DNA from: Candidatus Latescibacterota bacterium
GTDB lineage: Bacteria > Latescibacterota > UBA2968 > GCA-2709665
Length of the DNA stretch: 64,000 nucleotides
NCBI GenBank assembly: GCA_965248435.1
Contig: OZ252100.1
Location: 384,001 to 448,000, forward strand
Direction of reading: 5' to 3'
Shown here: in pieces, positions 1,454 through 3,748 of the stretch
Numbering within the stretch: position 1 is the stretch's first letter
Layout of the letters: each line of letters begins with the position of its first letter
Translations under genes and position numbers: made by a program
The notes under the pieces: generated by a model
Database searches by the model: none
What the model was told of the DNA's origin: nothing
The model's input: the letters and a program-made list of their open reading frames with translations, nothing else

Positions 1454-1518
1454 CAATTCGCGGATCGCAACCTTCCGCTGTCCGCCCTCTTTTGATCGCC
1501 CTTACAAGAACGGATACC

Positions 1519-2388
1519 GTGGGCAATATCCATCTCAGATGGTGGGGATGCGGCGCGTTCGACATCCTCTTCGGTGACGTCAACATCGCGGTCGATCCCT
1601 ACCTGTTCGGTGAGAACCTCGAGAGCGTACAGCCGATCTACGACTACATCCTCATAAGCCACGAACACTTCGACCACTGCCATCCCAAATCGCTTCGGCA
1701 GCTCTGCCGGGGCGACCGCTTCAAGAAGCTGTTCGTCAGCATCGGCTGCCTCACCCCCAACGAACCGGTTGATGAGAAATACGGCGATGCCGCCTTTTCA
1801 CGCGACCTGCCGATCGACAAGCATGTCCCGTCTGACAAGATCCAGGTCGCCTATCCCAAATACCTGACCGACGACGCTCCCAGTTTCCCAGGGCCGTCCG
1901 AGTTCGATCTGGGCCCGATTCACGTAGAGGCCGTGGAGAGCGGCGAAAACGCCAGACCCGATCTCCCGACCTGCGGCTATTTGATCACACATACGCAAAA
2001 GCAGGTTTCATTCTATCATACGGGAGACCTCCAGAAAACCTTTCCGGCGCTGGAGAGTCTCAGGGGACGCGTGGACTTTCTGATCCACATGAAAACGGGC
2101 TTCAAAAAGGGTTCGAAGAAATACGAGGAGTTCACCGATCTGCTCGATCTCGTCCGACCCAGGTTCCTCATCCCCACCCATTACCGCACAGACCGGGTGT
2201 CGGACCCGGTCCCCGAAGGCCACTGGCCGTTGAATCTGACGGATGTGAACGCCTACATCGAGGACCTGCGGACACACGCTGCGGGAAAGACGGAGATTCT
2301 TCCCTTTACGGCCGGCGTGTTGTACGAGGTCGAAATGCCGGAAAAGAGGGTCGTATGGGATTGGGACTGGTACGAGTCGTGGACCTAA
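1519..2388 (+). CDS. MBL-fold metallo-hydrolase (UlaG-like)
   Basis: VDPY, ISHEHFDH, YHTGD, IPTHY motifs. GTG at 1519 is the likely start (TTG at 1492 is the alternative). Confidence 0.8.
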   Translation: MGNIHLRWWGCGAFDILFGDVNIAVDPYLFGENLESVQPIYDYILISHEHFDHCHPKSLRQLCRGDRFKKLFVSIGCLTPNEPVDEKYGDAAFSRDLPIDKHVPSDKIQVAYPKYLTDDAPSFPGPSEFDLGPIHVEAVESGENARPDLPTCGYLITHTQKQVSFYHTGDLQKTFPALESLRGRVDFLIHMKTGFKKGSKKYEEFTDLLDLVRPRFLIPTHYRTDRVSDPVPEGHWPLNLTDVNAYIEDLRTHAAGKTEILPFTAGVLYEVEMPEKRVVWDWDWYESWT

Positions 2389-2397
2389 CCCCCCTAG

Positions 2398-2423
2398 CCC
2401 CCCTTCCCTAAAGGGAAGGGGGG
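2398..2423 (+). repeat. Left palindrome CCCCCCTTCCCT-AA-AGGGAAGGGGGG
   Basis: Perfect 12-bp inverted repeat, preceded by a C-rich tract. Confidence 0.85.
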
Positions 2424-2468
2424 AACGGGTAAAGCTCCATTCGGTGCTCCAATTCTGGGAAGAACGGG

Positions 2469-2837
2469 ATGCCTGAAAGACAGATCGTCACCGGGCAGAA
2501 GGTCGACAAAGAAAAAGGTCAACGCGCTAAAGACCTTCGACGTGAGATGACAGAAGAAGAGCGACTGCTTTGGGAACACCTTCGTGCCAATCGGCTAAAG
2601 GGCTTCCACTTCCGACGTCAACAAATCATCGATGGATTCATCGTCGACTTCTATTGCCATAAGGCGAGGCTGGTCGTGGAAGTCGATGGCCCGATTCACG
2701 AAGGACAAGCCGACTACGATAAGGAGAGGGATCGCGTCCTTTCCTTTCGCGGTTTGCACATCTTGCGAATCCAGAACGAGGACATTCGTGAGGAGCCGTC
2801 AAAAGTCGTATCGCTAATAGTTAAATTCCTGACCTAG
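2469..2837 (+). CDS. DUF559 / Vsr-like endonuclease domain protein
   Basis: RAKDLRREMTEEERLLWEHLR..FRRQQII..FIVDFYC..LVVEVDGPIH..DKERD..GLHILRIQNEDI matches the family pattern. Confidence 0.9.
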   Translation: MPERQIVTGQKVDKEKGQRAKDLRREMTEEERLLWEHLRANRLKGFHFRRQQIIDGFIVDFYCHKARLVVEVDGPIHEGQADYDKERDRVLSFRGLHILRIQNEDIREEPSKVVSLIVKFLT

Positions 2838-2889
2838 TTCAGCTAGATGAACAGTTGTTATCTATTTCCAAACCTGATCAAGGAGGTCT

Positions 2890-2923
2890 CCCCTCCCCTT
2901 TAGGGGAGGGGCCGGGGGAGGGG
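2890..2923 (-). repeat. Right palindrome CCCCTCCCCT-TT-AGGGGAGGGG plus G-rich tail (inverted relative of the left one)
   Basis: Perfect 10-bp inverted repeat. Its centre TTTA is the reverse complement of the left centre TAAA. Confidence 0.85.
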
Positions 2924-2992
2924 TCGTGCCGACGCGTCGTGGACCTAACCTGGATCTCTACCCGCGCATGAGATCGAGCTAAGGGAAGAGAC

Positions 2993-3748
2993 ATGAAGCC
3001 CGAGAATGCTGATCGCGACGGCTATTCCAAAATCGCGGACCGCTACGATAGGTTTTACGAAGAGGATCCGAAGATTCTCGCCTTCTTCAAGTACCTGGTC
3101 GATCGGCATCAGATCCGGAGCGTGCTCGATTGCGCCTGCGGCACCGGACGGGAGCTTCTGATCTTTCACTCCCTTGGCTGTGACGTTACAGGTTCGGACA
3201 TCTCGCCATCCATGCTCGCGTTGGCCAGGAAACACCTCGCAGAGGCCGACGTGGGGGTCCCGCTTCATCAAACCGATTACCGGGAACTGCACGAAAAGTT
3301 CACCGAGTCGTTCGACGCCGTTCTCGTCTGGTCGGGTGCCATCTTTCACGTCTCAGATGATGCAGACGCCCTACAGGCCTTTCGCAGCATGCGGAAAGTA
3401 CTCTCACCCGACGGGATCCTCGTGATGGATCAAGGCATGACGGACAGGAGATTGCTCGAAAAAAAACGATTTGTCCTGAATCGATCAACTCCTGAGGCCT
3501 CTCGCGTCTATGTCATCGACTTCCTGAGTGACCGAGATTGGCGCTACAACACGTTGGATGTCACCCACGACGGTGGCAAACACAGGATGGAGGTCTGGAG
3601 CACGGATGCTCACTTTCTGCTCGAGGAAGATCAGAAGCGCCTTCTGGGTGAGGCGGGGTTTTCCAGAGTTGACTTCTACGGAACATATGACTTCGACCCG
3701 TACGACAGAGACTCCAGTTTGAGGCTGATCACCGTCGCACATAAATGA
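2993..3748 (+). CDS. Class I SAM-dependent methyltransferase (glycine/sarcosine N-methyltransferase-like)
   Basis: VLDCACGTG motif I, GSDISPSML, FDAVL, VLSPDGIL. Confidence 0.85.
   Translation: MKPENADRDGYSKIADRYDRFYEEDPKILAFFKYLVDRHQIRSVLDCACGTGRELLIFHSLGCDVTGSDISPSMLALARKHLAEADVGVPLHQTDYRELHEKFTESFDAVLVWSGAIFHVSDDADALQAFRSMRKVLSPDGILVMDQGMTDRRLLEKKRFVLNRSTPEASRVYVIDFLSDRDWRYNTLDVTHDGGKHRMEVWSTDAHFLLEEDQKRLLGEAGFSRVDFYGTYDFDPYDRDSSLRLITVAHK

Follow-up and report, generated by a model that had tools for sequence, protein, structure and literature searches.

Repeats of the BoxC/PIT/TM type have been known since the 1990s and occur in hundreds of genomes, where they mark unstable regions; to our knowledge, neither an enzyme nor an origin has been assigned to them. 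Here, we analyzed a stretch of 64,000 nucleotides from the marine Candidatus Latescibacterota bacterium (contig OZ252100.1, positions 384,001 to 448,000 of the forward strand), referred to as the window, in which a gene for a nuclease of the DUF559 family lies between two repeat ends predicted to be of this type. The best explanation that we can offer for this element, and one in which we place about half of our confidence, is a selfish nuclease-plus-repeat cassette that would be copied by break repair without target duplication.

In the accessible text of Holder 2015 (PMC4666352), the purine-motif pattern has three 9-nt stems, the first C-rich and the other two G-rich; a 3-6-nt loop separates the first stem from the second and a 3-nt loop the second from the third, and a GTC may follow. 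The TM motifs mark variable regions in E. coli, and that text reports no transposase or integrase remnants and no mobility genes near them; the terms "nuclease" and "endonuclease" do not occur in it. The element described here shares with these motifs the three-block layout, together with the features of being dispersed, mostly intergenic, and tied to local variability. It differs in its arms, CCCCTCCCC and CCCCCCTTCCC, the genome containing no match to the strict TMECO consensus (CCCTCNCCC-N3-6-GGGNGAGGG-N3-GGGNGAGGG), and in having a nuclease gene inside the repeat.

Three further groups of mobile or selfish elements are close to this arrangement. A REP/REPIN-RAYT system (Bertels & Rainey 2011, PMC3116915, among others) has a single-copy gene flanked by genome-dispersed hairpin repeats, no target duplication, and gene-less copies that far exceed the gene. 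The layout of our locus, a single gene among dispersed repeats, resembles it and bears out the analogy that an initial annotation of this DNA had drawn, with a different enzyme. The enzyme here is a PD-(D/E)XK Vsr-like nuclease instead of an HUH Y1 (IS200/IS605-like) transposase, and the repeats are homopyrimidine/homopurine three-block motifs. Whereas RAYTs are described as long-lived and vertically inherited, the DUF559 gene is present or absent and decaying among close relatives. The EDxHD homing endonucleases, represented by I-Bth0305I (Taylor 2011, PMC3239194, accessible text), are likewise of Vsr-like fold, and their selfish genes are copied into a defined site by break repair; the way in which they invade, decay, and are lost agrees with the pseudogenes found in this study and with the presence or absence of a homolog at one site in a related genus, g6. 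They are, however, two-domain enzymes residing in group I introns or inteins of phage genes, in contrast to the repeat-bracketed, intergenic, single-domain protein of 122 aa found here, which is associated with no intron or intein. Miniature inverted-repeat transposable elements (MITEs) and cassettes derived from insertion sequences (ISs) are comparable in their short inverted termini (here GACC...GGTC), their gene-less miniature copies, and an internal-deletion derivative (in the g6 genome G030). They differ in that our element has neither a target-site duplication nor a transposase and its copies share the ends only. A flanking direct repeat of fixed length, as expected of MITEs and transposons, is lacking: 1 of 22 pairs of termini in this genome and none at the filled g6 site have such a repeat. 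The Vsr endonuclease itself is distinguished by its pairing with a DNA cytosine-5 methyltransferase, and both this pairing and a close Vsr match are absent here.

Triplex-type ends and the DUF559 nuclease

The left (A) end module occupies 2381..2424 (this and all features below are on the forward strand) and consists of an outer arm, GGACCTAACCCCCC, followed by TAG and a hairpin at 2398-2423, CCCCCCTTCCC-TAAA-GGGAAGGGGGG. The right (B) end module, at 2887..2925, reads CCCCTCCCC-TTTA-GGGGAGGGG-CCG-GGGGAGGGG-TC, the first three blocks of which form a hairpin at 2890-2911 (CCCCTCCCC-TTTA-GGGGAGGGG). Together the two hairpin regions make a 25-nt inverted repeat with 88% complementarity. They were folded as single-stranded DNA with ViennaRNA, which models hairpins only and not triplexes. 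The A hairpin yielded -13.6 kcal/mol, a stability reached by 1 of 200 shuffles, and the B hairpin -10.7 kcal/mol, reached by 51 of 200; the fold energy of the latter alone is not exceptional for such a C/G-rich composition. The layout of the B end, 9-4-9-3-9 and then TC, is exactly the Holder pattern, and its third arm mirrors the purine arm perfectly (0 mismatches, against 3 of 9 at the A end). Genome-wide, an adjacent mirror third arm accompanies 73 of 126 pyrimidine-first hairpins, compared with 14 of 126 in an offset control, and the generic three-block pattern has 22 matches versus 3 for the reversed block order. These comparisons suggest that the element ends are BoxC/PIT/TM-type three-block "intrastrand triplex" motifs, for which a triplex is predicted.

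The genome contains 137 perfect homopyrimidine/homopurine hairpins with arms of at least 8 nt. They are strongly polar, with the pyrimidine arm first in 126 and the purine arm first in 11, and fall into at least 5 sequence families, two of which (tccctctccca/cccctctccca pairs; cttttcttgt) have no DUF559 nearby. Hairpins of the A type number 27, and 21 of them have a common outer arm. The consensus of these 21 oriented copies is (G)GACCTAACCCCCC-nnG-CCCCCCTTCCC-TAAA-GGGAAGGGGGG, and the sequence outside GACC varies; that of the B type is CCCTCCCC-TTTA-GGGGAGGG-aCCGa-GGGAGGGGTC. There are 22 GACC...GGTC terminus pairs, mostly 117-185 bp long and free of open reading frames (ORFs); apart from the copy at this locus, about 20 family copies in the genome carry just a 40-100-nt spacer. 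In contigs of other loci, assembled from four seawater metagenome runs, the match begins at 2381 and ends at 2925. Because the family copies and the contigs from other loci share these limits, the element is delimited by comparison to 2381-2925, 545 bp with the termini GACC...GGTC, and is indicated to be a member of a dispersed repeat family. The selfish element of about 560 bp proposed by the initial annotation is partly supported, as an insertion belonging to a family with gene-less copies, and is to be separated from the target-duplication footprint on which that proposal was based.

Of the remaining family members, two are also long (602 and 570 bp); neither contains a DUF559 remnant, the best tblastn matches having E values of 15 and 33. 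The 602-bp A..B element encloses a repeat of about 155 nt (L057 12042-12199; contig C1 of this genome, ~3815040-3815200). In the same-genus genome this repeat is present in more than 25 copies with 77-86% identity; it is found again in another long A..B element and has no Rfam match. An Rfam scan of 25 kb including the window locus likewise gave no family at the gathering score. As suppliers of stop codons, A ends are unremarkable: 3 of 39 close a frame of at least 100 codons, like the other two frames (3 and 5).

The sole real ORF between the hairpins, at 2469..2837, is intact and encodes a protein of 122 aa. Its match to Pfam DUF559 (PF04480) has E 1.5e-37 and 128.2 bits (cut-off 20.6) and runs from position 3 to position 108 of the 109 in the profile; the structure 3hrl in the Protein Data Bank is matched with E 2.7e-20. 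Its Pfam matches are DUF559 and MTES_1575 only, and there is none to an HUH Y1 transposase. DUF559 is a member of the Vsr-fold clan, which includes proven homing endonucleases, in agreement with the Vsr-like fold assigned to it initially; neither a Vsr chain nor the I-Bth0305I structure gave a sequence match to the window protein at E up to 1. Vsr-like nucleases of the PD-(D/E)XK type cut or nick DNA. Among 36 homologs, conservation reaches at least 94% at D60, E71, D73, G74, H77, and D84, and the window protein retains all of them, as it does all 20 positions conserved at 90% or more. The acidic and histidine residues in this set are probably the catalytic ones, as judged from the family literature. 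A scan for promoters and terminators detected no sigma-70-like promoter at the locus, and the hairpins are not followed by a T-run.

To assess how widely the gene and the hairpins occur together, matches to PF04480 were collected from 61 genomes sampled across the phylum, 18 of which had them. The best 20 DUF559 loci, excluding that of this genome and those already in hand, were then inspected. A perfect pyrimidine-first hairpin lies within 200 bp of DUF559 in 12 of the 20; these hairpins are found 4-140 nt from the gene, either on one side or on both. Hairpin density amounts to 21 per 14,206 bp near DUF559 versus 4 per 78,642 bp over the remainder of these loci, about 29 times that of the surrounding 2.5 kb. 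Where both flanks were available (34 loci), many DUF559 genes were enclosed by whole hairpin modules, 23-157 nt in length, in direct repeat. These counts indicate that DUF559 genes and such hairpins are linked far beyond chance. In the DUF559 and bacterial intrastrand-triplex literature, leaving aside the supplementary gene-context tables of Holder 2015, we found no published account of a pairing of DUF559 with triplex repeats.

The same association is seen in E. coli K-12, where the 10 kb surrounding ycjD, a gene annotated as DUF559, contain a single match to the published TM pattern, and 0 of 200 shuffles contain any. The nesting of a nuclease in these repeats in the window, together with the canonical motif beside ycjD, makes the DUF559-TM link directly testable. 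In MG1655, the canonical TMECO motif lies in the ycjD-fabI spacer (L082 5206-5761), 168 nt downstream of the ycjD stop codon, and a partial duplicate of the 3' end of ycjD is situated between the gene and this motif. Of 5426 complete E. coli genomes, 3375 contain the ycjD segment at a coverage of at least 80%. An E. coli O157:H7 strain was considered as an empty site for ycjD and rejected since its whole neighbourhood differs.

The 15-mer, the junctions and the wild relatives

The initial annotation had reported a 15-mer, GTCGTGGACCTAACC, at 2376-2390 and again at 2936-2950, extending to an 18/19 match (2372-2390 and 2932-2950), with two pyrimidine/purine hairpins and an intact DUF559 gene between the copies. 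We found all of these as described. When up to 2 mismatches are allowed, the window contains 3 matches to the 15-mer, against a mean of 0.17 in shuffles, none of 100 of which reach 3; the 5.67-Mb genome contains exactly 2 copies. The left copy spans the final codons and the TAA stop codon (2386-2388) of a metallo-β-lactamase (MBL)-fold hydrolase gene (Lactamase_B_3, Pfam E 4.8e-16; 1492..2388), which ends ...WYESWT-TAA. The left 19-mer (2372..2390) consists of 9 nt of MBL coding sequence followed by 10 nt from the start of the repeat, GGACCTAACC; these hold the stop TAA and represent the conserved outer terminus of the repeat family. The right 19-mer, ACGCGTCGTGGACCTAACC (2932..2950), lies outside the element, 6 nt beyond its right end, with the linker GTGCCG (2926..2931) in between. 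The displaced MBL tail, which in orthologs reads GTGCC..., may begin in this linker.

The repeat had been read as a 15-bp target duplication, and a search for flanking repeats at other family loci had been proposed as a check. This reading does not hold. Ten of its 15 nt are the family terminus, repeats between the left junction and the right flank reach 15 nt only here, the other 21 of 22 pairs having 6 nt or fewer, and the filled g6 site has none. The comparisons indicate that the 15/19-mer is not a transposition footprint; it duplicates the left junction and is peculiar to this locus. Its simplest origin, we infer, would be that the second 19-mer is the stub of a second tandem unit, because tandem 564-bp units in the relative G002 likewise repeat flank and terminus: each ends CGGACTGAGT/GACC (slashes mark junctions), echoing the left flank of the array, CGGTATGAGT/GACC, which is a gene end. 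Several arrays of these DUF559 units lie within 17 kb of the G002 genome (C1:3757000-3776000, L011; also L012), and the region includes truncated units keeping just the first 42-44 codons, with hairpin-only arrays nearby. The practical lesson is that the 15-mer is unfit as evidence of transposition and that the element has cost the MBL gene its native C-terminal tail.

That loss is seen by comparison with orthologs. The MBL protein ends WT* here and in G001, the sole other genome of the genus, and the stop is the TAA within GGACCTAACC; orthologs end WT-VPPWREG* in another family and WT-EPSWRDDRSNE* in a sister genus of the same family. Because the orthologs in these two other lineages extend 7-11 codons past WT, the element is taken as an insertion relative to the ancestral gene, which indicates that it took the place of the final 7-11 MBL codons and provides the stop of that gene. 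The proposed insertion at a gene 3' end is supported in this form.

In G001, the MBL and methyltransferase genes are 32 nt apart, and the spacer between them contains no hairpin, no DUF559, and no second 15-mer. An empty site with a single copy of the repeat had been predicted for relatives; G001 does have one 19-mer, followed by CCCCTGGCCCC, 14 more repeat-end bases, so that 24 nt from GGACC match the A end. At least the A end was therefore present in the common ancestor, and the G001 site is a remnant or deletion product instead of a clean empty site. Three syntenic intergenic sites without elements were found in this relative when clean empty sites were sought in the genus; the DNA is too diverged for their junctions to be read.

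Wild relatives of the window locus were recovered from seawater metagenomes. In contig L025 and in contigs from three runs, the MBL gene is followed by the A end and DUF559, or the B end by the methyltransferase gene. One of these contigs encodes a DUF559 protein with Q80*, E108*, D84N, and F48S, its gene having 6 synonymous and 10 non-synonymous changes; for the adjacent MBL gene, the respective counts are 11 and 3. Close to codon 7, the DUF559 gene of L025 and that of one further run have a +1 frameshift, and the A hairpin of L025 has lost two base pairs. These changes indicate that in wild relatives the nuclease gene is decaying while the MBL gene is under purifying selection. Contigs from four seawater runs bridge MBL to DUF559 and the B end to the methyltransferase gene. 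The excised or circular junctions suggested as a further check were not seen: no contig joined MBL directly to the methyltransferase gene or showed a circle junction, and rare forms are invisible to contigs. Joints of 2419-2424 to 2887-2891 were considered as excision products and rejected; the 37-40 other letters inside them identify short family members elsewhere.

A homologous cassette in a neighbouring family

A homologous A-DUF559-B cassette, with 56-59% protein identity, is located just past the stop codon of a gene in G027, a member of genus g6 in a neighbouring family. We compiled a series of 22 loci at this site from 21 genomes. Two are filled (G027 and G023), 12 are empty, 2 are short and diverged, and in G030 both ends are kept while 421 nt, including nearly the whole gene, are missing. 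The site (L062-L081, L030, L032) is an insertion hot spot whose occupants differ between species: the other 5 of the 22 loci hold other DNA in 4 cases, in one of which a ParE toxin gene is part of a toxin pair, and a 1.6-kb gap with an IS110 transposase in the remaining one. The filled junctions read ...CATGAA/GACC...GAGAGGTC/CACTTT... and show no duplication. The empty sites read ...CTTAGAGGTCCACTTT... and contain TGGTCTTAGAGGTCCAC; the empty target thus already holds AGAGGTC, which resembles the right end of the element. Presence or absence of the gene at a precise site without duplication, the behaviour expected of a homing-type gene, is therefore found for the g6 homolog and not for the window locus. 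In a tree of the flanks (380 columns), the filled genomes do not form one clade, and G027 pairs with the empty G035 with support of 80/71.

Relatives in which a DUF559 gene of this type was detected, at E 1e-26 or better, numbered 13 of 41, and in none of the 6 in which both genes could be located does it lie near the MBL ortholog. The A-DUF559-B architecture is kept between two families at 56-64% protein identity.

Possible origins of the cassette, and its neighbouring genes

In the proposed cycle of a selfish nuclease-plus-repeat cassette, the nuclease would nick or cut DNA that resembles the repeat ends or folds like them, and the cassette would then be copied in through recombinational repair, as in homing. 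The nuclease could recognize the structured repeats, repair could use them as homology, or both. After fixation, the gene would decay and be deleted, leaving gene-less hairpin elements. We favour this homing-like cycle because there is no target duplication and the targets resemble the element ends (GGAC here, AGAGGTC in g6), and because presence, absence, and internal deletion are observed at the same site while the gene is a pseudogene in wild relatives. A more far-reaching proposal, which we put forward tentatively and consider less probable than the cycle itself, is that DUF559 could be the missing partner enzyme of the BoxC/PIT/TM repeats, which would recognize the folded three-block DNA or its sequence, nick it, and drive the copying of itself and of gene-less repeats. 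If true, this would be a structure-targeted selfish system distinct from transposons, REP/RAYT, and classical homing genes, and the partnership would explain the genome instability reported around TM motifs.

Several observations weigh against the homing-like cycle. Gene-bearing and gene-less copies in this genome have only their ends in common (44 and 39 nt), and the genome has a single DUF559 gene of this type. Some relatives have many matches to the triplex-type pattern and no detected DUF559 of this type (39 in G004, 21 in G030, 17 in G026). The hairpin modules around DUF559 do not keep one orientation: they face outward at this locus, in G002, and in G027 and inward in genus g3, and they form direct repeats in many other lineages. 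The evidence from the g6 flank tree is weak, with key forks at 80-91, and recombination between species could mimic the pattern. The states of G001 and the window cannot be polarised from two genomes, and the tandem-unit origin of the second 19-mer is argued by analogy. Any present-day movement of the cassette would be hypothetical, and the activity of the enzyme is a prediction.

The main rival explanation resembles the RAYT systems: an immobile, host-retained, single DUF559 gene would spread or maintain gene-less hairpins in trans. It would account for one gene of this type alongside about 20 gene-less copies with the same ends and for a second DUF559 gene of this genome that adjoins a different hairpin family; moreover, 3 of 4 g6 genomes with the gene have at least 20 pattern matches and 10 of 12 without it have 2 or fewer, although these genomes are related and not independent. 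We nonetheless consider it unlikely, given that the gene is a pseudogene in wild relatives in which the neighbouring gene is conserved, that it is present or absent at one site in close relatives and occupies different loci across genera, and that G004, G026, and G030 retain many motifs without it. True transposition with a 15-19-bp target-site duplication, which would place the element at 2391-2931 and make the 19-mer the duplicated target, appears quite improbable to us, even though the repeat is real and unique in the genome, G001 has one 19-mer between the same two genes, and 14 nt at the start of the 19-mer belong to the native MBL coding sequence. The supposed target ends in the family's 10-nt terminus, which precedes CCCC-nnG-CCCCCC in 21 other copies; no long flank repeat accompanies the 21 other pairs; the g6 site, cleanly filled or empty, shows no duplication; and the G001 19-mer runs into the element interior instead of the right flank of the second copy (TGGATCTC). 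Transposition is further disfavoured because the Vsr-like PD-(D/E)XK class cuts or nicks DNA, its clan including the EDxHD homing endonucleases, and we know of no strand-transfer chemistry for such a nuclease alone. An integron cassette with attC and a site-specific (Campbell-type) integration were set aside, there being no integrase and no duplicated core in other copies.

Another possibility is that there is no partnership: unstable triplex-type repeats would gather at variable spots, and DUF559 would be an unrelated accessory or defence gene landing there. The marking of variable E. coli regions by TM motifs, the ParE toxin gene and IS110 at the g6 hot spot, and weak PADLOC matches to DpdF and a PD-DEXK protein are compatible with this. 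The spacing and density of the hairpins around DUF559 in the 12 of 20 loci and the conservation of the whole A-DUF559-B layout across two families argue otherwise; in addition, the DUF559 cassette carries these ends, which were not shown for the ParE and IS110 occupants. We judge this account to be rather improbable. Least credible, and to our minds very improbable, is a Vsr-type mismatch repair enzyme teamed with the neighbouring methyltransferase. DUF559 does belong to the Vsr clan, and the methyltransferase gene starts 155 nt downstream of it. However, the methyltransferase is of a small-molecule class, the MBL and methyltransferase genes are adjacent without DUF559 in G001, and no Vsr chain was matched by the window protein at E up to 1.

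The methyltransferase gene (2993..3748) lies outside the element and encodes a class I S-adenosylmethionine-dependent enzyme (Methyltransf_25/11). Its best NCBIfam matches are to RiPP, glycine/sarcosine, and UbiE types, with none to DNA methylase models, indicating that it is not a DNA cytosine methylase.

The second DUF559 gene of this genome (C1:2453538-2453843, L013) is 39% identical. A hairpin of a different family, TCCCCCTTT-GGA-AAAGGGGGA, with a G/T-rich third arm, lies 45 nt upstream of it, and about 45 members of this hairpin family are dispersed in the genome. DUF559 also occurs as a domain of larger proteins: in a type I restriction-modification locus of G001 (L018 123-2513, L027 1748-3730), both hsdM and hsdS contain in-frame DUF559 domains. 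In HsdM (796 aa), N6_Mtase is split in two, with DUF559 at residues 445-550 and an in-frame GIY-YIG at 670-739; in HsdS (660 aa), DUF559 occupies residues 281-384. The DUF559 domains of both proteins are edged by peptides encoded in C/G-rich hairpin sequence.

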